DNA from: an uncultured Pseudomonadales bacterium
Lineage (GTDB): Bacteria; Patescibacteriota; Microgenomatia; UBA1400; PJMF01
Direction: 5' to 3'
Assembly (NCBI GenBank): GCA_964412775.1
Contig: CAYPPX010000002.1
Coordinates: forward strand, 4,935 to 68,934
DNA length: 64,000 bases
The position numbers and the translations under genes were made by a program. Positions 1,392 to 12,719 of the stretch are shown piece after piece (positions within the stretch are counted from its first letter, which is position 1; each line of letters begins with the position of its first letter). The notes below the pieces were generated by a model. It worked only from the letters and a program-made list of their open reading frames with translations. It was not told the DNA's origin and did not search any database.

Positions 1392-1712
1392 ATGGCAGAA
1401 GCTCCCAAGCATTTACTCACTGAGTTAACTGATGAAATTGTGGCCAATCCTCAGCTTGTTGGCATAGAAGGTGAGATCAATGTGAATGAAGAAAGAGAGC
1501 CTAAAGAAGGTGATATTGATGGCGATGCTTTAGATACAATTGAAGTAAGTGATGGTTTGGCTCCAGCTGACAAAGACAGAATCGTGAAGATTATTAATTT
1601 GCTTGCAGATAAGAAAGCAAAGACTGGCCGAAACATGTTTTTTGACATCATGGCGATAATAATAGAAATGCAAGCAGAAAAAAGAACAGCTGCTGACCAA
1701 GTCGAAACCTAA
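1392..1712 (+). CDS. hypothetical acidic protein (106 aa)
   Basis: ORF 12 nt downstream of previous gene; very acidic; no family recognised. Confidence 0.4.
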   Translation: MAEAPKHLLTELTDEIVANPQLVGIEGEINVNEEREPKEGDIDGDALDTIEVSDGLAPADKDRIVKIINLLADKKAKTGRNMFFDIMAIIIEMQAEKRTAADQVET

Positions 1713-3145
1713 TCAGTTTGGACTGCCTTTTTGAACTGTTCACCACGATCTTGATAGTCTTTGAACAGGCCAAAACTAGCGCTAGCTGGACTGAGTAGAA
1801 TCACTCCTTGGCTTTCACCACTAAGCATAAAATATTGAGCCATGATGTGTTGAGCCTTACCAACGGCTTCTGGCATTGTTTTGGCAAATTCAATGACAAG
1901 GCTGTTATCAGTATCTAGATTATTTATTTCCACAGCTAACCTTTTGCCAGTCGGTTCAAATAAAACTAATCCAGCCACTTTTTTTTCTAGTATTTTTTTG
2001 GCTAATTCAGAGAAATCTTGGTGGCGTTCATAACCACCAGCTATTAAAACAACTGGTTCGGAGAAACTATCTAAAGCTCTCATGGCCGCATCAGGCATAG
2101 TAGAGAGAGAATCATCATAATAACGAATGCCTTTTTTTTGATAAAAAAACTCCAATCGATGGGGTAGAGCTTTAAAGTTTTGTAAGGCATTGCCAATCTG
2201 TTCTGCTGATAGATTAAACAGCGTTCCTACCACTACAGCAGGCATGACGTTTAATAGATTATGCTCGCCTTTGAGCGGCAGTTTCTCTATTTCTAAAATC
2301 AGTTCAGTTCTTTGTTGATTATCCTTGCGTAAAATCTGCTTATTTCTGACGAAAACAACGGCATCTGGTCCTTCTTGCAGTGAAAAACGTAGGTGTTGAC
2401 CAGCACTAAATTGGGTAATCTTGGTAGCACCAGTCATTTGCGGATTAAAAATAACAAAATCATTTTCAGTTTGATACTTACAAATAGGGATTTTGGCTTG
2501 TTGGTAACTGGCAGTATCTGGATAGTAATCGAGATGTTCGCTAGTGACATCTTGAACCACTGCAAGATGAGGACTGATGGTCATGGTTTCTAGCTGGTGG
2601 CTAGATAGTTCACAAACCACCAAAGAATCAGCATTAATTCTTTCTAAAATTGTCAAAGATGGTTGGCCAATATTACCCACTAAATGACTATCTAAGCCAT
2701 TCGTTTGCAAAACATGATGAATTATTGCTGAGGTGGTGCTTTTACCTTTGGTGCCAGTTACACCAATCGTTATTCCTGGACAGAGGCCAAAAAACAGCTG
2801 AGTGTTAGAAGTGAGTTGAGAACCGTTTTTTTTGGCTTGATCGATTGCTGGGATAGTTTGAGGAATGCCAGGGCTTTTAAAGATTAGCTGATAATTTTTT
2901 AGGTTAGTTAAATGATTGTTACCAAAGTAGTACTCAAGATGAGGATCATTTTTTAGTAGTTGTTGTTGATCTTCAGCAAATTTTTCTAGTGGTTGTTTGT
3001 CTGCCACGGCTAGTTTTTTATTGGGAAACTTGGTTCTCAAAAAATGGTAAGTTGACCAACCTTCTCGTCCCATTCCTAGAATCAGGATAGAGTTTTTTTC
3101 TAAGTTAGCCAAAACTTGTTGTTGATCGATCATAGTTTCTTTCAA
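1709..3145 (-). CDS. murD: UDP-N-acetylmuramoyl-L-alanine--D-glutamate ligase
   Basis: N-terminal Rossmann-like ILILGMGREG; Mur ligase P-loop GVTGTKGKSTT; overall Mur ligase architecture, 478 aa. Confidence 0.8.
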   Translation of the reverse strand: MKETMIDQQQVLANLEKNSILILGMGREGWSTYHFLRTKFPNKKLAVADKQPLEKFAEDQQQLLKNDPHLEYYFGNNHLTNLKNYQLIFKSPGIPQTIPAIDQAKKNGSQLTSNTQLFFGLCPGITIGVTGTKGKSTTSAIIHHVLQTNGLDSHLVGNIGQPSLTILERINADSLVVCELSSHQLETMTISPHLAVVQDVTSEHLDYYPDTASYQQAKIPICKYQTENDFVIFNPQMTGATKITQFSAGQHLRFSLQEGPDAVVFVRNKQILRKDNQQRTELILEIEKLPLKGEHNLLNVMPAVVVGTLFNLSAEQIGNALQNFKALPHRLEFFYQKKGIRYYDDSLSTMPDAAMRALDSFSEPVVLIAGGYERHQDFSELAKKILEKKVAGLVLFEPTGKRLAVEINNLDTDNSLVIEFAKTMPEAVGKAQHIMAQYFMLSGESQGVILLSPASASFGLFKDYQDRGEQFKKAVQTD

Positions 3146-4569
3146 AAATAGCTATTTTTAGCTTGACAAATTTGTTGAGCTTCTTGTTGTAGCAACTCGA
3201 CCAAGCTGTGATCCAAGTGATGCTGCTTATTCCAAAAACATAGTAGCATCTTAGTAGTTTGTTCTAGGTTGGGGACTTGAGAAAGAATTTCTTGATTAAT
3301 TTTTTCTAAAACCACTGGTAGTGGTTTATTTGGATGGTTTTTTTGCCATTTTTTAATGCTTAAGTAAAAAGCTGCTTGAGTTTCTTCATGAGTGCCAACA
3401 CACTCAAATGGTTTATTAGCATCAAGGCCCATTAATTCTTGAGCTGTTTGGTTGAGATTAGGTTTGGTAAAAAGGTTTTCAGAAAAAATTTCTGTAATTA
3501 GTTTTTGTTCGTCAATAAATGGGTAGAGGACAGCAAAAACAAATAAACATTTAGGACATTCTCCACACCACTGGTTTAGTTGTTGTCCTCTGTTACAGCT
3601 GCGAAAAATCGACTGAAATTGTTCATTTTTGCTAAATAGAGCTGCTATTTGTAGTTCGGTAAGAGGTCTGAGAAACGACAAATATTCAGGGGCTGATCCG
3701 AGATATTTTTTTACATAAGTTCTGAATTTATTTTCGAAGGCAAATGATTTAGAGTATTGGTGATTAACCATTATTCCCAGGTAAGGCACGTTACCTTCAT
3801 TAGCCGAGAATTCATTAGCTAATAAAATATTTTTATGACCACTCAGTAAAGCAACTAAGCTACTCTCAAAAGCCAATCTAGCGCTAAAAGGGGTATGGCC
3901 ATTTAAGTATCCTTGTTTGTTGAGTTCCAAGAGTTCTGGAGCAAAAGTTCTTTTTATTTCAATAATTTTAACTTGAGTTTCACTGGCTATTTTATGGGCA
4001 GCCGGTGATTGAGGATAGCTGAGTAGTATTTCGTAGGGAAGCTTATATTTGCTAAGTAAATTTATGACTAAAGCAGAATCTTTTCCGCCACCTACTGGGA
4101 CAAGAGCTTTATTTTTTGCTTGAAAAGAAAAGCTGGGTAGTTTTTGGGGAGTAAGAGTGTTTTGATTAGTAAATTTAACGAAGTTTGGTTGAGTGAAATC
4201 AATGTTATTGGTGTAAAAGTATTCACCCATGCCATCAAGCAGTAATCCTTGCCACCAAGAGAGTTGCTCTGGAGAAAGTGGCAGTGGCTGAATAACTATT
4301 TCTGGTGAGGCTGCTACTTTCCAATAGCTGAAGAGCTCAATCATCCCCAGATTAAAAACCCAGTGGCTAATGATTTCTTGAGGTATATTGGCAAAGGTTT
4401 GTTTATCTAGGTTGGTGATGGTGATTTGGGGTTGAAAATTAATGGCTGGTTCCAACAAAAAATCAAAAGAAATAGTCAATGTCTGGTTACTAAATTGCCA
4501 GTCAAAGCTTTGGTAGATGAAGCGGGGGTGTTGTTTTCTTAATGATTCGAGAGTTTTCTCGGTTGGCAT
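3142..4569 (-). CDS. PP-loop (N-type ATP pyrophosphatase) superfamily protein with C-terminal Cys cluster; function unknown
   Basis: Internal VPVGGGKDSAL resembles the SGGxDS PP-loop. C-terminal C...CGECPKC resembles QueC/amidotransferase-like zinc-binding motifs. Start overlaps murD stop (ATGA), suggesting translational coupling. Confidence 0.6.
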   Translation of the reverse strand: MPTEKTLESLRKQHPRFIYQSFDWQFSNQTLTISFDFLLEPAINFQPQITITNLDKQTFANIPQEIISHWVFNLGMIELFSYWKVAASPEIVIQPLPLSPEQLSWWQGLLLDGMGEYFYTNNIDFTQPNFVKFTNQNTLTPQKLPSFSFQAKNKALVPVGGGKDSALVINLLSKYKLPYEILLSYPQSPAAHKIASETQVKIIEIKRTFAPELLELNKQGYLNGHTPFSARLAFESSLVALLSGHKNILLANEFSANEGNVPYLGIMVNHQYSKSFAFENKFRTYVKKYLGSAPEYLSFLRPLTELQIAALFSKNEQFQSIFRSCNRGQQLNQWCGECPKCLFVFAVLYPFIDEQKLITEIFSENLFTKPNLNQTAQELMGLDANKPFECVGTHEETQAAFYLSIKKWQKNHPNKPLPVVLEKINQEILSQVPNLEQTTKMLLCFWNKQHHLDHSLVELLQQEAQQICQAKNSYF

Positions 4570-4975
4570 GCTTTTATTATACCTAGTCAGAGGAGATAAG
4601 GCTATTAACTGAAAGTTGGTTGAATAGGAGTGGTTAGCACCAACGAAAATAATTCGGGTGAGTTGATTCTGGATACTTTTTATTTATTTATGGTATTAAT
4701 TGGTTTTTTAAATAAATTTTCTCAAAAAAAAAGCTACTCAAAAACAATAAAAAATTAGTTAAGTTAACAGTCAGCCAATAGTGGTTTCGTGTTTTTTTCA
4801 ATAAAAAAATTCGGGTTTATTGAATTTCAAAAAATGAAGATACGAATAAAAGACGAAGTATGAAAAAGTATGACACTTTTCTTAAAACTTAGATTGGGAA
4901 AACCATAGACTATTGATACAATAGTTAATGGAAGCTGATCTTTTTCGTACTCTTTTCAGTTTTAAAAAGTAAAAA

Positions 4976-5822: not shown

Positions 5823-5878
5823 ACTAATAAAACAAATACTCCCGTTGGTAACGGGAGTATAAACGTCTATTTTTTTAG
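5823..5878. terminator. bidirectional intrinsic terminator between convergent genes
   Basis: Hairpin ACTCCCGTT-GGT-AACGGGAGT at 5838-5858. The minus-strand side is followed by AUUUGUUUUAUU. The plus side has a T7 run 12 nt downstream. Confidence 0.5.
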
Positions 5879-5881
5879 GGA

Positions 5882-6160
5882 CTAATCTTCGTCAGGAGTT
5901 TCTGCTGGGTTAACACCTAGTAACCATAATACTGCTTCTTTTTTATAGCGACGGTCACCACGGGAGTTAATTCTGATTGCTGGAAGTTTGCCACGCTTAC
6001 CCCAACGTTTGATGGTAAGAGGGGAAACTCTAAGTAGGTCTGCCACTTCACGAACTGTAAGTAAGTCTGGCAGGTTATTAATATCTAGCTTGGCGGCATC
6101 GTTGGCTCGGCCGGTTTTTTTGTCGTCCATCTCAGAGACGGTGGCAGATGCATCAGTCAT
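5882..6160 (-). CDS. excisionase-family helix-turn-helix DNA-binding protein
   Basis: LTVREVADLLRVSPLTIKRW...GKLPAIRI..GDRRYKKEAV matches the Xis/MerR-like HTH_17 pattern. Local GC (~47%) is higher than neighbours. Confidence 0.65.
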   Translation of the reverse strand: MTDASATVSEMDDKKTGRANDAAKLDINNLPDLLTVREVADLLRVSPLTIKRWGKRGKLPAIRINSRGDRRYKKEAVLWLLGVNPAETPDED

Positions 6161-6350
6161 GCAGATCCTTTCCTAAGTGTTAATACTGCATCCGCGGTGA
6201 ATGGTGCAATATAGATCAGAATTTTTCAAATCTATATACCAAGGTAACAGAATAAACTGAACTGGGTCAATAGTGAATTTCAAACTAGGTCAAATATGGG
6301 CAGTTTTGCTTTTTAAAAAATATAAATAATGTTATGATCACCTTTGAATT

Positions 6351-7805
6351 ATGACTTTAAAGAATAAAAAAGTTTTAATCGTTAATTCTGGAGGGACAAA
6401 TAAAACTCATACTTTTGCTAAGGCAAATGAGTTGGGGCTTGATCTATATCTTTTATTAACGGAAAAAGACTTATTAGAAAAAAAATGGGTTTTAAACTAT
6501 ATTCCCAAAAAGAAAATAATTCTGTCTAAGGATACTAATTTTGAGACTTTTATTGAGGATGTATTAGTTTTTCAAGAAAAAAATGGGATAAAGTTTGATG
6601 GAGTGACTACTTTTGTGGAAGAATACACTTTTCAAGCAAGTTGTGTTGCTTCAGCTCTAGGTAAAACTTTTATTTCTCCATCAGCAGTGATTAATAGCTC
6701 TTTTTACAAATATGTAATGAGAGAGAGATGCCGAGAAAAAGGAATTAAAACTCCTTACTACCATTTTTTTAAGACTCTCAAAGAACTCAAGTTGCTTTGC
6801 AAAAAGCTCAAATTTCCTGTGGTGATAAAGCCTCATGATGGCAATCATAGTTTGGCTGTTATAAAGATTAGTAATCCTCAAAATTCCAGAGAAGTAACCA
6901 AAGCATTTAATTTGGCAAAAAATGAAATGAACCAGTATTTTTCTTATAGATTTGATGGTGATAATCTATTTATTTTAGAAGAATTTATTGAAGGTTCTTT
7001 AATTTCTGTTGATGGGGTGATTCAAAATCAAAAGCCCAAAATAGTTGGTCTTGCTGAGTATTTTTTATCTCCAGATCCATTATTAGTTCCTGAGTTTAAC
7101 TTTATTCCCCCTGTAAGCGAAAATATTTTAAAGAATAAACAATCAATTTACTCAGAAACAAAAAAAATTTTGAAAGCACTAGGATTTGATAATTGTGGTT
7201 TTCATTGCGAGATGAAAGTTAACGGAAATCAAGTTATTTTAATAGAGATTGGGGCAAGAATTGCTGGAGGGCCCATTGCTCAAGGTTATTATCGAGCTTA
7301 CGGGCTGGATTTGGCCAAAGCCTCATATCAACTAAGCTTAGGTGATCAGGTTGAGTTTAAAAAAACAAAAAATAACTGTGTAATGCAAAAAGCTGTTTTT
7401 ACTTATGAAACCAGTCTTTTTAAAAAAGATTTTATCGATAAATTAAAAAAATATGATTACATCAAAGACTTGGTTAAGTTCTATAAAGAAGGAGACCTAA
7501 TTCGTATCTATGGCAATCAAGCTGAGGCTGTTTTTTACTATTGTGTTGAGGCTTCTAACCCAAAAAAACTGAATGAATATCTTAGTGAAATTGCAGACCT
7601 CAAGCTTTATGATTTTGAACCGGTTAAAATTGAGCAAAAGAAAAGTAAAGTACTTGAAGACCTAAAGAAAAAGAAAAATAAGCTAAAAAAAACTAAAATC
7701 GGTAAAGTGTTAAAGTTTGTTTCTGATGTTTGTAAAATTCCGTTTAATTACGAGTTAAGAGCTAATAAAGTAAAGAATATTTCTTGGTTTGATTTCTTTG
7801 AGTAA
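6351..7805 (+). CDS. ATP-grasp enzyme, L-amino-acid ligase (BacD/YwfE)-like
   Basis: N-terminal KKVLIVNSGG, central FPVVIKPHDGNHSLAV, FILEEFIEGS and GFDNCGFHCEMK...IEIGARIAGG align block-by-block with YwfE-type L-amino acid ligases. The gene is strikingly AT-rich (~30% GC). Confidence 0.6.
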   Translation: MTLKNKKVLIVNSGGTNKTHTFAKANELGLDLYLLLTEKDLLEKKWVLNYIPKKKIILSKDTNFETFIEDVLVFQEKNGIKFDGVTTFVEEYTFQASCVASALGKTFISPSAVINSSFYKYVMRERCREKGIKTPYYHFFKTLKELKLLCKKLKFPVVIKPHDGNHSLAVIKISNPQNSREVTKAFNLAKNEMNQYFSYRFDGDNLFILEEFIEGSLISVDGVIQNQKPKIVGLAEYFLSPDPLLVPEFNFIPPVSENILKNKQSIYSETKKILKALGFDNCGFHCEMKVNGNQVILIEIGARIAGGPIAQGYYRAYGLDLAKASYQLSLGDQVEFKKTKNNCVMQKAVFTYETSLFKKDFIDKLKKYDYIKDLVKFYKEGDLIRIYGNQAEAVFYYCVEASNPKKLNEYLSEIADLKLYDFEPVKIEQKKSKVLEDLKKKKNKLKKTKIGKVLKFVSDVCKIPFNYELRANKVKNISWFDFFE

Positions 7806-7832
7806 TTTTATTAAATAAACATTATTTTAATT

Positions 7833-8156
7833 ATGGAAAAATATAGACGACTAATTAGTGAACTAAAAGTTACCAGAGAAGTTGGTAGATTTAAGCAATC
7901 TAATAAGCGGATTGATTTAAATAGGTTTATTTTTTCTCGCAATGCTCCAGCAAATAGTTTAGAGGCTCAATTGCTAGATCAATTGGTAGCCAAGCAAAAA
8001 AAATTAGAGGAAGTTTCAGCTAGTGAAGACCTCAAAGTTGTTGAAGAGATTAGCGCTGTGGTAGATGATTTAGCCAGGCAAGTTTATCAAGCTCACCGAG
8101 ATTTTGTAGCGAGAGGTAAAAAATATATCACTCCTGAGGGTGAAATAATTGATTAA
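7833..8156 (+). CDS. hypothetical protein (107 aa)
   Basis: ORF immediately downstream of the ATP-grasp gene, same low GC; no family recognised. Confidence 0.4.
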   Translation: MEKYRRLISELKVTREVGRFKQSNKRIDLNRFIFSRNAPANSLEAQLLDQLVAKQKKLEEVSASEDLKVVEEISAVVDDLARQVYQAHRDFVARGKKYITPEGEIID

Positions 8157-8170
8157 GTTTTCGTTGTACC

Positions 8171-8201
8171 AAAAACCCCGCCTTGCAGCGGGGTTTTTTT
8201 T
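8171..8201. terminator. bidirectional intrinsic terminator
   Basis: AAAAA-CCCCGC-cttgca-GCGGGG-TTTTTTTT, a perfect hairpin flanked by an A-run and a T-run, between the convergent hypothetical gene and rplL. Confidence 0.65.
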
Positions 8202-8225
8202 GTTTCTATTGTTAATTGAAACAAA

Positions 8226-8630
8226 TTATTTCATTTCAACGACACAACCAGCTTCTTCTAAGGTTTTCTTAGCAGCTTCGGCGTCTTCTTTCTTAGCACC
8301 TTCCAAAACGGTTTTTGGAGCAGATTCGACGAAGGTCTTAGCTTCACCCAAACCTAATTCTGGTTTCAAGGTACGAACGGCTTTAATAGCCCCGATTTTG
8401 TTAGATCCGGCGTCTTTCAAAATAACGTCGAATTCATCTTTAACTTCGGCAGCGGCGGCTTCACCACCAGCGGCTGGCATAGCACCCATCATGACTGGGG
8501 CGGCAGCACTAACGCCGAATTTATCTTCTAAAGCTTTAACGAGTTCAGAAACTTCCATGAGGGAAAGTTCTGAAACAGCGCTAACGATTTTCTCCACTTT
8601 AGCGGAGAGTTGTTTTGTGTCTTCTGACAT
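8226..8630 (-). CDS. rplL: 50S ribosomal protein L7/L12
   Basis: Full-length match to L7/L12: N-terminal dimerisation helix, Ala/Gly/Glu-rich hinge, and C-terminal [21 protein letters not shown]...VEMK. Confidence 0.95.
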
Positions 8631-9378: not shown

Positions 9379-11340
9379 ATGAAAAAGTGCAACTCCAATA
9401 ACCTTTTGAAGAAAATCACTTTAAAAGTGGTTATTTTTTTGGGTTTGTTAGTTCCTAGTTTATTTATTAACTTAGTTAAAGTTCAAGCAGAGGAGAAAGA
9501 GTACCAGATTTCTTCAGTCAATATTCAAGCTGAGTTAAAAACCGATGGCTCGATGGAGGTCACCGAAACCAGAACCTACAACTTTACTGGTGACTTTCGG
9601 TTTGCTTACCAACGAATTAATTTAAAACCAGATCAAAAAACTGATCCTGGTCGTAGCGAATCATATAGGGTAAGAATTAAAAGTTTATGTGATGAAAAAA
9701 CTTGTTATAAATTTGTTGAACCAAATAAAATTGATTTGACTGAACGCCGTAACAATCAGCCTGGTACTTATACAGTAATTTATAACAACGATGAAGTTTA
9801 TATCCAGTGGCACTATGCAACCGTTAATGGTAGTAAAGTTTTTAAGCTCAACTATTTAGTCGATAATGCCGTGACTTTACATGAAGATGTGGCCGAGCTT
9901 TATTGGCAGTTTGTGGGGAGTGAGTGGGAAGTTGCCCAAAAAAATATTACCGTTGACTTAAATTTGCCAGACGGGATTAGTGGTGATGACATTGAAGCTT
10001 GGGGACATGGAGAGCTAAGTGGGGTGATTGCAATTCCTAATAACAAGCTAGTTAAAATTACGGTCCGAAATATTAGTTCAGGTAAAATAGCTGAAGCGAG
10101 AGTGATCTTACCCAAAACAGTGTTTTTAACGGGCGCTAAAGGGCTTTTTTCTAAGACAAAGATTAAAGAACAAGAACAAACTTTTATTATTGAAACTCAA
10201 AAATGGTTGGGGAGAAATCAAATTTTTGTCAAAATTCAGTTGCTATTGGTTGGAGCTTCTTGGTTGACGGCGATGGTGATTTTTTTCAAATGGTTATTGG
10301 TCGATCGACAAAAAATTCCTAAAGCCAACCAAGCCGATCGTTTCTGGGAACCACCGAGTGAGCTTAACCCGGCTTCAGTGGAGCAGTTACTCAATCACCG
10401 TCAACCTCTGACAGTCAAGTCATTTACTGCTGTGGCCTTATCTTTGGTGCAACAAAAGTTTATGAAGATTATTCGGAGTGATGAGAAACAAGGCTTCTTG
10501 CTTAAAAAATATGAGTATGGTTTTGTTAGGATAAAAAACCAGAAAAAAATAGGCGAAGTTGAACAGCTGGTTTTTGATTATTTATTTGAAAAAGTAGCTC
10601 GTCATCAAGACACTATTTGGTTTAAAGATTTAATTGGTTACAACAAAAAACACCCAAGTGGGGCAAGAAGTCTGCTTAAAGATTTGGAAAAAAAAGCTTT
10701 TGCCGTAAATAAAGACAAAGAATTCATTGACGAAAAAACTAAAAGCAGTTTTTTCAAAACAGTTAAGCCTTTGTTATTAATTTTTGCAGTCTCAATCGTG
10801 GTGATTATTATTCAAGCTATTTGGTTAGGTGAATATTTAGATCCAACGGCGATTTTTATCAGTCTGTTTGGGCAAATGTATTTAGCCTTTGGTTTGCTTA
10901 TTGCTGGCTCAATAGCAGCTTTGAGTTTCCGTTACTCTGAGAGTGGACTCAAAGAAGCTTCTTTATGGCGAGCCTTTGCCAAACACATGAAAGATTATCG
11001 TCAGACTAGAGATTATCCTATCGATTCGGTAATTTTATGGGAAAAGTATCTAGTTTATGGCACACTTTTTGGGGTATCTGCTAAAGCGTTGGCCCAATTA
11101 CCAGTTAGGTTTGATTTGAATGACCCAGTGGTAACTGGCTATTGGGTGGGTCATAGTTACGCAACTGGTAATGATTTTTCATCATCATTTAGTGGTTTAT
11201 CTGATTCTCTAAATTCGGTTTTGCACTCTTTTAGTAGCTCTACCACTCAAAGTTTTGGAGCAAGTGGGGCTGGATCTTCTGGTGGTTTTTCTGGTGGTGG
11301 GGGAGGTGGAGGAGGTGGCGGTGGCGGTAGCGCTGGTTAA
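9379..11340 (+). CDS. DUF2207-family membrane protein
   Basis: Signal peptide, extracytoplasmic domain, internal TM segments and a C-terminal GGFSGGGGGGGGGGGGSAG poly-Gly tail characteristic of DUF2207 proteins. Confidence 0.6.
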   Translation: MKKCNSNNLLKKITLKVVIFLGLLVPSLFINLVKVQAEEKEYQISSVNIQAELKTDGSMEVTETRTYNFTGDFRFAYQRINLKPDQKTDPGRSESYRVRIKSLCDEKTCYKFVEPNKIDLTERRNNQPGTYTVIYNNDEVYIQWHYATVNGSKVFKLNYLVDNAVTLHEDVAELYWQFVGSEWEVAQKNITVDLNLPDGISGDDIEAWGHGELSGVIAIPNNKLVKITVRNISSGKIAEARVILPKTVFLTGAKGLFSKTKIKEQEQTFIIETQKWLGRNQIFVKIQLLLVGASWLTAMVIFFKWLLVDRQKIPKANQADRFWEPPSELNPASVEQLLNHRQPLTVKSFTAVALSLVQQKFMKIIRSDEKQGFLLKKYEYGFVRIKNQKKIGEVEQLVFDYLFEKVARHQDTIWFKDLIGYNKKHPSGARSLLKDLEKKAFAVNKDKEFIDEKTKSSFFKTVKPLLLIFAVSIVVIIIQAIWLGEYLDPTAIFISLFGQMYLAFGLLIAGSIAALSFRYSESGLKEASLWRAFAKHMKDYRQTRDYPIDSVILWEKYLVYGTLFGVSAKALAQLPVRFDLNDPVVTGYWVGHSYATGNDFSSSFSGLSDSLNSVLHSFSSSTTQSFGASGAGSSGGFSGGGGGGGGGGGGSAG

Positions 11341-11414: not shown

Positions 11415-12719
11415 ATGCGAGAAATCTTTAGAAAAATTACTGACAGCTCAGCTAATTGGTTACAACAGCGAATTGAAAATAGCATCCAAGGTCAAGGTAA
11501 AGATAACAAAAATTTGTTATCTAGAATTGCTTTGGACAAACTCAAGCGTCGTAGCCAGTCAGAACAAGTTGTCCCTCAGGAATTTGAGGCCAAGTTTAAC
11601 CAATGGCGAACCGTAATTGAGCAAGATCGCTATGAACTTTCAAATCCTGACGAAACAGGTGAAATTAGAAGATTCTACTCCATGGCCAATGGTATTTATG
11701 GTGAGCCGTTAATTACTGCAGAACCTGATTTAGCTTTTGCTTTGCCACCAGCAGTTAGTTTTGTTAACGCCAAAGGTAAAGCAATCGATCAACCTTCAAT
11801 GAAAATTTCTGGCATTATTTGTCAAAGTAAAGCTGAAGTAGGTGATGGGGAAGAAGCCCAAGTAGTGGTGGATCACCGGGTAAGTTTAAGTAACAAAGGC
11901 ACTAGAACAATTGAACAGACTGAAGATGGCCTAATAATTAATGGTGAGCGTTGGTATTTAAAAACCCTTTTTTCCAAAGATGGTAATAGAATCAAAAACT
12001 ATGATGCTTACTACGTCAAAACCAAACCAGAAAGTGTGCAATTTTTAGAGCTACAAGATATTAATTTTGTGGGTGTTAACCAGTCAGCCGAGCATTCAGA
12101 ACAAACCGAGACAGAGCAGTGGCGAGAGCTTTTAACTGATAAAACTGACCTCAAAAGACTAGCCAAACTTACTTACAAAAAACTTAAAAGAAAACTTGAG
12201 TCTCTTGATCCAGAAAATAAACCAGTAGCAGAATACCAGTTCAAACAATGGACTTTTAGGTTTTGGGCAGATAAGTATGAAATTGTAAATTTAGAGCCAG
12301 ATGGTACTGAGCGTTTTTACAAAGTGATCAAAGGTAAATATGGTGAGCCAATTATTGTGGCAGAACCTGATCGGGCTTATGCTTCTCCAGAAAATGCTGA
12401 GTATGCTAATGCTAAAGGTGAGACTATTCCAAGACCTGAGGGTGATATTTCTGGGATTATTTGTCAGAATGAAAATGGTTCTGTAGCTCATCGGTTTAGT
12501 TTATCTAATCCCAAAACTCCCAAGTTTAGAGTCACTAAAGATGGTTTGATCCTATTTTTAAAAGATGAAGCTGGCAAAGTGACTAAAGAGCGTTGGTATC
12601 TTAATACCATGTTTGCCAAAGACAAAAATCGGGTCAAAAACCATGATGGTTACTACAGTCGTCAAAAACCAGCCAAGATCAAGATGGTTGAGCTCCAAGA
12701 CTTAGAGTTTGTTGATTAA
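11415..12719 (+). CDS. hypothetical protein built from two tandem copies of an uncharacterised ~170-aa domain
   Basis: Residues ~55-260 and ~270-434 are clearly homologous (YGEPLITAEPD.../YGEPIIVAEPD..., ISGIICQ, ERWYL.T.F.KD.NR.KN.D.YY, ELQD..FV). Confidence 0.55.
   Translation: MREIFRKITDSSANWLQQRIENSIQGQGKDNKNLLSRIALDKLKRRSQSEQVVPQEFEAKFNQWRTVIEQDRYELSNPDETGEIRRFYSMANGIYGEPLITAEPDLAFALPPAVSFVNAKGKAIDQPSMKISGIICQSKAEVGDGEEAQVVVDHRVSLSNKGTRTIEQTEDGLIINGERWYLKTLFSKDGNRIKNYDAYYVKTKPESVQFLELQDINFVGVNQSAEHSEQTETEQWRELLTDKTDLKRLAKLTYKKLKRKLESLDPENKPVAEYQFKQWTFRFWADKYEIVNLEPDGTERFYKVIKGKYGEPIIVAEPDRAYASPENAEYANAKGETIPRPEGDISGIICQNENGSVAHRFSLSNPKTPKFRVTKDGLILFLKDEAGKVTKERWYLNTMFAKDKNRVKNHDGYYSRQKPAKIKMVELQDLEFVD

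Follow-up and report, generated by a model that had tools for sequence, protein, structure and literature searches.

In a 64,000-nt stretch of DNA from an uncultured member of the Patescibacteriota (contig CAYPPX010000002.1 of assembly GCA_964412775.1; the whole stretch is called the window), we examined a gene for a 484-aa ATP-grasp protein located between rplL and wecG. The protein is a functional carboxylate-amine ligase of the ATP-grasp type. It represents a small, uncharacterised subfamily whose members come mainly from Patescibacteria, and it was assigned from sequence and modelled structure to the clade of L-amino-acid ligases (LALs). Its gene is old, optional cargo of a hypervariable chromosomal slot. 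The explanation that suits the data best adds to this the amidation of a cell-envelope precursor; taken as a whole, this combined explanation seems to us evenly poised between being right and being wrong. In an original prediction, the locus had been described as a horizontally acquired low-GC insert in which a BacD/YwfE-like ligase was accompanied by a 107-aa open reading frame (ORF) and by an excisionase-type helix-turn-helix (HTH) gene. All three ORFs are indeed present.

The ligase and its closest known relatives

The three-domain fold, the ATP-binding lysine, the acidic pair at the hinge, the two Mg2+-binding acidic residues and the catalytic arginine of the ATP-grasp superfamily were all found in the protein. 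The Pfam model ATP-grasp_4 (PF13535) matched with 65.8 bits (E 4.7e-18, profile positions 2-155 of 160), well above its gathering threshold of 27 bits. NCBIfam matches were all below threshold, the best (95 bits, cut-off 625) being to the N-terminal ATP-grasp half of PRK02186, and the BacD and DdaF equivalogs (NF053745 and NF041595) reached just 38.7 and 42.9 bits against cut-offs of 850 and 840. When the single sequence was searched against the Protein Data Bank (PDB), 4dim and BL00235 were found at 1e-13 and BacD at 1e-9. A profile of 15 family members ranked BL00235 (7.5e-33) and BacD (1e-28) first, followed by 4dim (1.7e-17) and RizA (1.5e-14), with the next clade, Ddl/VanA, at only about 1e-8. 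Both by profile and by fold, the closest solved relatives are the LALs BL00235, BacD and RizA, at about 19% identity. LALs (EC 6.3.2.49-type, the BacD/BL00235/RizA group) are defined by activity, and their members are about 20% identical to each other. Judged by sequence and by the structure model, the ligase is placed in this clade and not among RimK, CPSase or Ddl, as had been predicted; the narrower likeness to BacD was not supported, with BL00235 being nearer by every measure and the BacD and DdaF equivalogs remaining far below their cut-offs.

Residues K160 (in VIKP), E210-E211, H285-x-E287 and E299-x-x-A-R303-x-x-G306-G307 are invariant in the family alignment. They align with ...NCATHTE... 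and ...IESAARFAGW... of BacD, and the motifs NC-x-x-H-x-E and IE-x-A-A-R-x-x-G are common to the family, BacD and BL00235. In place of BacD Trp332, which presumably limits the size of the N-terminal substrate, the window ligase has Gly307; PDB entry 3wo1 is titled as the Trp332Ala mutant. The AF2 model of the ligase (pLDDT 84.3, pTM 0.80) and its sequence also include a 60-aa C-terminal tail (residues ~425-484) with a net charge of +8, which contains an amphipathic segment at 450-467 (muH 0.51, H +0.23) and ends in WFDFFE. Only the subclade of the window ligase and one other clade (P0004, 40% identity) have this tail, the tail-less family members being 414-448 aa long. It is also missing from the solved relatives, i.e. 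from BL00235 of Bacillus licheniformis (PDB 3vot, 19% identical to the window ligase) and from RizA (PDB 4wd3) and 4dim (16-21% identical). The last of these, an uncharacterised ATP-grasp protein of Anaerococcus prevotii deposited as 'PurD', has N-x-D where the ligase family has H-x-E.

The ratio dN/dS of the ligase gene was 0.03-0.07 over pairs with dS from 0.29 to >2, indicative of strong purifying selection and therefore of a functional gene. The family is rare. A word-indexed search of 5.8 billion proteins returned 18 relatives, and an exhaustive profile search of 1.84 billion representatives returned about 45-50 clusters above roughly 300 bits, below which there is a continuum into generic ATP-grasp_4 proteins (743 at 1e-30). 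A family member was present in 12 of 185,579 species genomes. Most of them were Patescibacteria (Daviesbacteria, Microgenomates, Saccharibacteria, Adlerbacteria and Lloydbacteria), and the other carriers were Thermoanaerobaculia, a Symploca and one low-GC metagenome-assembled genome (MAG). The closest public genome is the Patescibacteria MAG Betzabe_MAG183 (GCA_049322655.1), at 94% identity. Exact-sequence look-ups of the window ligase and of the 107-aa ORF (orf107) returned no record.

A variable slot between rplL and the HTH gene

The locus comprises the following features:

5836-5860, no strand: terminator hairpin between wecG and the HTH gene, 11-bp stem, from the terminator scan
5882-6160, minus strand: HTH gene, 92 aa; HTH_17/MerR-type, BldC-like, 'excisionase-family'
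6161-6297, minus strand: conserved leader/promoter of the HTH gene, holding an 8-bp inverted repeat
6298-6350, plus strand: cargo-specific A/T-rich segment with a candidate extended -10, only in ligase-bearing loci
6351-7805, plus strand: ATP-grasp ligase gene, 484 aa
7833-8156, plus strand: orf107, 107 aa, helical; 27-nt gap to the ligase gene
8171-8198, no strand: terminator hairpin between orf107 and rplL, bidirectional (A-run, 11-bp GC-rich stem, T-run)

Related contigs, given below by their L numbers, have a common backbone ThrRS-DUF2207-rplJ-rplL-(slot)-HTH-wecG-murL/murD, in which the slot was found in six states:

Empty (390 nt): L052-57
Homologue of orf107 alone: L012
Unrelated 126-aa ORF (orf126) alone: L013
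Unrelated pair of a 239-aa and a 74-aa ORF: L058-61
Ligase and orf107: the window, L010, L049-51
Ligase and a 139-aa ORF (orf139), homologous to orf126: L001/2

The ligase is thus missing from the same slot in close as well as distant relatives; L012 and L013 do without it although their rplL and rplJ are 99% identical to those of the window. Ligase-bearing and ligase-less loci differ cleanly by the ligase ORF and about 50 nt of A/T-rich promoter (6298-6350), a segment found solely in the ligase-bearing loci (window, L001, L010 and L011). Since the slot takes six forms and close relatives lack the ligase, the gene is accessory cargo with its own short promoter, residing in a hypervariable slot or recombination hotspot. 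This implies frequent homologous exchange across the conserved flanks.

The ligase is not a recent arrival at this slot. In L001, whose rplL is 86% identical to that of the window and whose ligase is 75% identical at the amino-acid level, the ligase occupies the same site with a GC content of 30.9%, and dS exceeds 2. The unchanged site and GC in so distant a relative, with dS saturated, make low GC a stable property of the gene. In the window (37.0% GC; mean of 61 ORFs 37.4%, sd 2.7), the ligase gene is the ORF with the lowest GC (30.4%, z -2.6) and the sole 1.45-kb stretch of 31% GC or less within the 64 kb. Its GC3, however, deviates by just z -1.3, and the largest deviation measured is that of amino-acid composition (FYMINK 41% vs 29%, z +2.8). 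The predicted contrast of ~30% against ~40% GC therefore held for the ligase but not for the background, nor for orf107, whose 35.2% GC is not anomalous. Likewise, of the supposed horizontally acquired insert, only the ligase proved accessory, and a recent acquisition found no support.

No mobility genes (integrase, transposase) or flanking repeats were found at the window locus, and no viral relatives in IMG/VR; on the latter ground a phage origin was rejected.

A candidate extended -10 element, TGTTATGAT, lies at 6330-6338, 12 nt before the ligase ATG, and its form TGTTAT(G/C)AT is kept in L001. The ligase gene has no Shine-Dalgarno (SD) sequence, so its leader would be very short or absent. 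The missing SD was also considered as a sign of foreign origin and discarded, since an SD-like motif precedes just 21 of the 66 long ORFs of the window. The murL-like gene is preceded by TAGGTATAATAAA-ATG (4570-4590), and it, the ligase gene and others have a -10-like box a few nt before the start codon, a pattern suggestive of a genome in which many mRNAs have a very short leader or none.

Some further observations concern recombination around the slot. Among the relatives of the window slot (6161-8226), all four combinations of ligase presence or absence with an orf107-type or orf139/126-type small ORF were seen. Mosaics at the scale of single genes were apparent at 5882-7805, where pS of the HTH gene was 0.03 against L010 and 0.48 against L049, and that of the adjacent ligase gene 0.38 and 0.24, respectively; this implies a breakpoint in the intergenic region between the two. 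In L012, an Exo_endo_phos (endonuclease/exonuclease/phosphatase) gene at 6352-7101 is inserted between the HTH gene and wecG, marking a second variable point of the backbone.

Gene context in other lineages

We surveyed the context of the ligase in 18 further independent lineages (<70% identity), comparing 90 genes within three positions of the ligase with 65 control genes at positions 6-10 on either side. The near neighbours included ABC_tran (five times), class I/II aminotransferases and radical SAM proteins (four times each), Wzy_C (three times), and GT1, Methyltransf_24 (MT24) and Mur ligases (twice each). No family occurred more than twice among the controls, ABC_tran being met once. Several of the clusters were as follows (PLP, pyridoxal phosphate):

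L003/L062: ABC-2 exporter, ligase, second ATP-grasp, MT24, FemAB, Wzy_C, PLP decarboxylase
L074: PLP decarboxylase, ligase, MT24, Wzy_C
L065: aminotransferase, ligase, Wzy_C, radical SAM
L072: NTP-transferase, then after a gap ligase, ABC-2 exporter, GT1
L006: MT24, ligase, radical SAM, aminotransferase, Bac_transf

The tail-bearing clade P0004 lies inside a surface-glycan cluster. In L003, the homologue, 40% identical, has as neighbours a second, unrelated ATP-grasp protein, which weakly resembles BesA and carries a PreATP-grasp domain, and a protein of the FemAB family (9435-10760 and 11631-12632), and this cluster with its Wzy_C protein and ABC-2 exporter could represent multi-step peptide decoration of a surface polymer.

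Wall genes were also met near family members, namely MurF-like, MurE, YkuD and an LD-carboxypeptidase homologue. The Mur-ligase neighbours were considered as FolC, which was rejected: the MurF-like protein scored about 225 bits, below the subfamily cut-off of 288.6 bits, and MurE 332 bits, above its own cut-off. A peptidoglycan-specific enrichment (binomial ~0.007 with an assumed background of 0.18) weakened after the 18 independent lineages were scored, across which surface-glycan and PLP partners recur more than Mur genes.

A possible role at the cell envelope

From homology and the conserved catalytic residues, the following chemistry can be proposed. ATP would be bound between the central and the C-terminal domain (K160, E210/E211), with E287 and E299 coordinating Mg2+. 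Phosphorylation of a carboxylate (most likely from an amino acid) would give an acyl phosphate; an amine would then attack it, R303 stabilising the intermediate, to yield an amide, ADP and Pi. The acceptor or the donor may be an envelope precursor near the membrane; a surface-glycan intermediate is the likeliest candidate, a peptidoglycan precursor another possibility. In that case, the ligase would add a strain-variable amino-acid decoration to the cell surface instead of making a free antimetabolite dipeptide.

Amidation of an envelope precursor near the membrane seems to us likelier than the synthesis of free dipeptides, because of the glycan, exporter, PLP and Mur neighbours in other lineages and because of the basic amphipathic tail, and we put the chance of such amidation somewhat below even. 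The fuller version, a previously unrecognised tRNA-independent amidoligase which is held at the membrane by its tail, transfers an amino acid or amine onto a lipid-linked glycan or wall precursor and travels as single-gene hotspot cargo in Patescibacteria, is offered tentatively, as possible but rather doubtful.

Two known systems offer parallels. The ATP-grasp amidoligase Cj1438C forms an amide on the C6-carboxylate of glucuronate in the capsule of C. jejuni (PMC11800379). This C-terminal domain of Cj1438, a TupA-like ATP-grasp, is a precedent for amide formation on surface polysaccharides, the likeness being one of proposed role only. PLP-dependent enzymes of the Cj1438 gene cluster reportedly supply the amine, which parallels the PLP decarboxylases and aminotransferases found with Wzy_C and ABC-2 exporters beside members of the ligase family. 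As for the wall, peptidoglycan stem peptides receive D-Asp from the ATP-grasp enzyme AslA/Aslfm in a tRNA-independent reaction (PMC4155827). AslA/Aslfm is a cross-bridge D-aspartate ligase, and several members of the ligase family lie near MurD, MurE, MurF, YkuD or FemAB genes. Close relatives that have the same wall genes manage without the window ligase, and thus it is no core wall enzyme.

Several points weigh against an envelope role. Cj1438C and Asl would be precedents of role only. The characterised members of the nearest clade (BL00235, BacD and RizA) all join free amino acids. In the window itself, neither an amine-forming enzyme nor a glycosyltransferase partner or dedicated exporter adjoins the ligase, and the proximity of wecG and murL/murD signifies no functional link, as they belong to the backbone that surrounds the slot. 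The neighbour enrichment is post hoc, with categories picked after seeing the data and with small counts that are not individually significant. In about half of the lineages the ligase stands beside housekeeping genes (Dus, SpoU, SecA, IleRS, AhpC), and outside Patescibacteria the arrangements B12-radical SAM, ligase, GNAT and methyltransferases, S66 peptidase, ligase fit small-molecule pathways equally well. Finally, the pLDDT of the tail is below 60 from about residue 430, and the tail could bind nucleic acid or protein rather than membrane.

The HTH gene, its leader and the terminators

The HTH protein matched Pfam HTH_17 (41 bits) and MerR_1 (37.6 bits) and passed the cut-off of the NCBIfam 'excisionase family' domain model TIGR01764 (34.9 vs 28.8 bits). 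Its best NCBIfam model was BldC (NF033787), the score of 44.9 bits being under the cut-off of 77. It has the HTH_17/MerR_1 domains in common with BldC-type proteins and differs from them by a 32-aa N-terminal extension, by its sub-threshold score and by its fixed position between rplL and wecG; from 'excisionase-family' HTH_17 proteins it differs by the lack of an integrase partner. At least 6,697 clusters of relatives exist in the protein collection, the best 120 matches being 77-100% identical, and those with a named source came from Patescibacteria or Woesebacteria. The gene keeps its backbone place between rplL and wecG in all related lineages that were examined, among them L001, L010-L014 and L049-L061, whether they carry the ligase or not, and it adjoins wecG in the ligase-less L012, L013 and L052-61. 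A role as Xis or recombination directionality factor was rejected: the domain is present, but there is no integrase, and the gene is fixed in the backbone. The protein has the look of a global, core DNA-binding protein in this group. No publication tying BldC or LALs to Patescibacteria or the candidate phyla radiation (CPR) was found in a literature search.

Together with the 137 nt upstream, the HTH gene is about 91% identical to L001 at the nucleotide level, against a background of 65-75%. The leader is nearly invariant in seven loci, two of them without the ligase, and so is the inverted repeat within it, which has 8-bp arms (ATATAGAT at 6209-6216 and ATCTATAT at 6230-6237) and a 13-nt spacer; a rough estimate gives about 0.2 such repeats as the chance expectation for AT-rich intergenic DNA of comparable length. 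The repeat that had been placed in a shared divergent promoter is therefore real, but it belongs to the HTH gene's own conserved leader. The more distant P0048 lineage keeps just TTGAC...TCTG.TA...TATAGAT of it. As TATAGAT is kept at this distance, it is probably the -10 box, and the repeat would be at most a lineage-specific auto-operator. An SD, AGGAAAGG, lies upstream of the HTH-gene ATG. RNA folding of the leader was not significant (z 0.19), and Rfam had no match for it, with all sub-threshold matches falling on the terminator hairpin; on these grounds a structured RNA or riboswitch was rejected. With the gene and its leader kept irrespective of the ligase, the HTH protein is not the dedicated regulator of the ligase that had been supposed; it and its repeat regulate at most the HTH gene itself.

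The terminator scan of the window yielded eight hairpins, compared with 3.1 +/- 1.7 in shuffled sequences. The two that had been taken as boundaries of a module are real, and each is an ordinary terminator between convergent genes, wecG and HTH on the one side and orf107 and rplL on the other. The hairpin at 5836-5860 is part of the backbone and not of the cargo. As it lies outside the HTH gene, the terminators do not delimit the low-GC segment. The hairpin at 8171-8198 is common to orf107 and the convergent rplL; it is kept in L001 and was found 3' of the rplL-side gene in L013/L014.

The 107-aa ORF

Judging by the 27-nt gap, the lack of a terminator in between and the shared terminator downstream, orf107 is probably co-transcribed with the ligase gene here. 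It is nevertheless separate cargo, functionally independent of the ligase: a homologue occurs without the ligase in L012, and in L001 an unrelated ORF takes its place beside the ligase, which speaks against orf107 as a component of a ligase module. Only three close clusters were found, and no Pfam, NCBIfam or PADLOC family matched. It evolves fast (dN/dS 0.26-0.8): identity to the versions in L010 and L012 is just 43-45%, compared with 98-99% for the ribosomal proteins of these strains. Conservation is lacking at its C-terminus (...EIID, ...KIIA, ...KIIE), and this, together with its distribution, led us to reject orf107 as a carrier or substrate protein.

Alternative explanations

The foremost alternative is a true L-amino-acid ligase that joins two free amino acids or lengthens a short peptide, the soluble dipeptide or oligopeptide serving as a small molecule such as an antimetabolite pro-drug, an osmolyte, a signal or a storage compound. 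We regard this as unlikely, though clearly to be reckoned with. The nearest solved relatives by profile and fold are LALs and have the catalytic motifs in common. Stand-alone LALs exist, BL00235 being deposited simply as 'L-amino acid ligase', and small-molecule-like clusters surround the family members of Thermoanaerobaculia (B12-radical SAM/GNAT) and Symploca (methyltransferases, S66 peptidase). BL00235, however, acts on free amino acids, whereas the family of the window ligase turns up repeatedly in surface-glycan clusters alongside glycosyltransferases, Wzy_C and ABC-2 exporters; nothing equivalent to the conserved basic amphipathic tail exists in the tail-less members; and the equivalog scores given above remain far from those of BacD and DdaF. 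BacD/YwfE is the alanine-anticapsin ligase of the bacilysin pathway (PDB 3vmm, 3wnz), and no bac-type genes lie near the window ligase. The antimetabolite pathway of the original prediction found no support, as the annotated neighbours from murD to DUF2207 (murD, murL, wecG, HTH, orf107, rplL, rplJ and DUF2207) include no gene for warhead biosynthesis, immunity or export and do not resemble a dipeptide cluster of the bacilysin, rhizocticin or tabtoxin type. A dipeptide of ordinary amino acids is, moreover, no antimetabolite.

A ligase that modifies a peptide or protein by the logic of RimK, LysX or PGM1, for example the orf107 product or L7/L12, is much less probable. Its probable co-transcription with orf107 and the vicinity of rplL would be in line with such an activity. 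Against this, orf107 is missing beside the ligase in L001 and present without it in L012, its C-terminus is variable, and the other family members are not near rplL.

A known anti-phage defence system was rejected, as PADLOC gave no match for the ligase, orf107, orf139 or orf126 (the HTH protein had a weak, domain-level match to mad1).

Hardly any weight is left for a recently imported, terminator-bounded island of Xis-type HTH gene, ligase and orf107 with a regulator of its own. In its favour are the GC of the ligase gene, which no other ORF of the window undercuts, the absence of the ligase from close relatives and the match to the 'excisionase family' model. Against it, the HTH gene, with its many close homologues, belongs to the backbone of ligase-less lineages, its leader and repeat are kept irrespective of the ligase, neither integrase, transposase, flanking repeats nor viral relatives were found, the stable composition at the same site in L001 is not that of an unameliorated import, orf107 occurs alone, and the terminators are ordinary ones between convergent genes. 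What probability then remains is assigned to other roles.

Neighbouring genes

Left of the HTH gene lie genes for a WecG/TagA-family glycosyltransferase, a MurL-like epimerase and a MurD-like ligase, and right of orf107 those for rplL, rplJ and a DUF2207 membrane protein. The MurD-like ligase gene overlaps that of the MurL-like UDP-MurNAc-L-Ala-L-Glu epimerase (1709-4569, minus strand). The epimerase scored 253 bits with the NCBIfam model MurL, under the 700-bit cut-off, and its homologues carry Pfam MurL_N and MurL_epimerase_C. The murD/murL-like pair is kept in several related Patescibacteria lineages (L001, L010, L012 and L058-61). The DUF2207 protein (9379-11340, plus strand) has a Gly/Ser-rich tail with a run of 12 glycines at its end. 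It is a mosaic between strains, with 57% identity to L010 and 84% to L012, the adjacent rplJ and rplL being 98-99% identical in both.

Implications

On present evidence the ligase is rare and uncharacterised, but as a member of a known clade of the superfamily it is unremarkable. What this analysis offers is chiefly a correction: the supposed regulator is a backbone gene, the supposed island is old, and an antimetabolite pathway is missing. Specialists in Patescibacteria may find the conserved HTH gene with its invariant leader and the six-state slot more interesting than the ligase itself. If the envelope role is true, a LAL-clade enzyme would act on a glycan or wall precursor, and we would have a concrete case of genome-reduced Patescibacteria varying their surface by single-gene cargo at a conserved hotspot. 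Surface chemistry would then differ from strain to strain, with a bearing on how episymbiotic ultra-small bacteria attach to hosts or evade phages.

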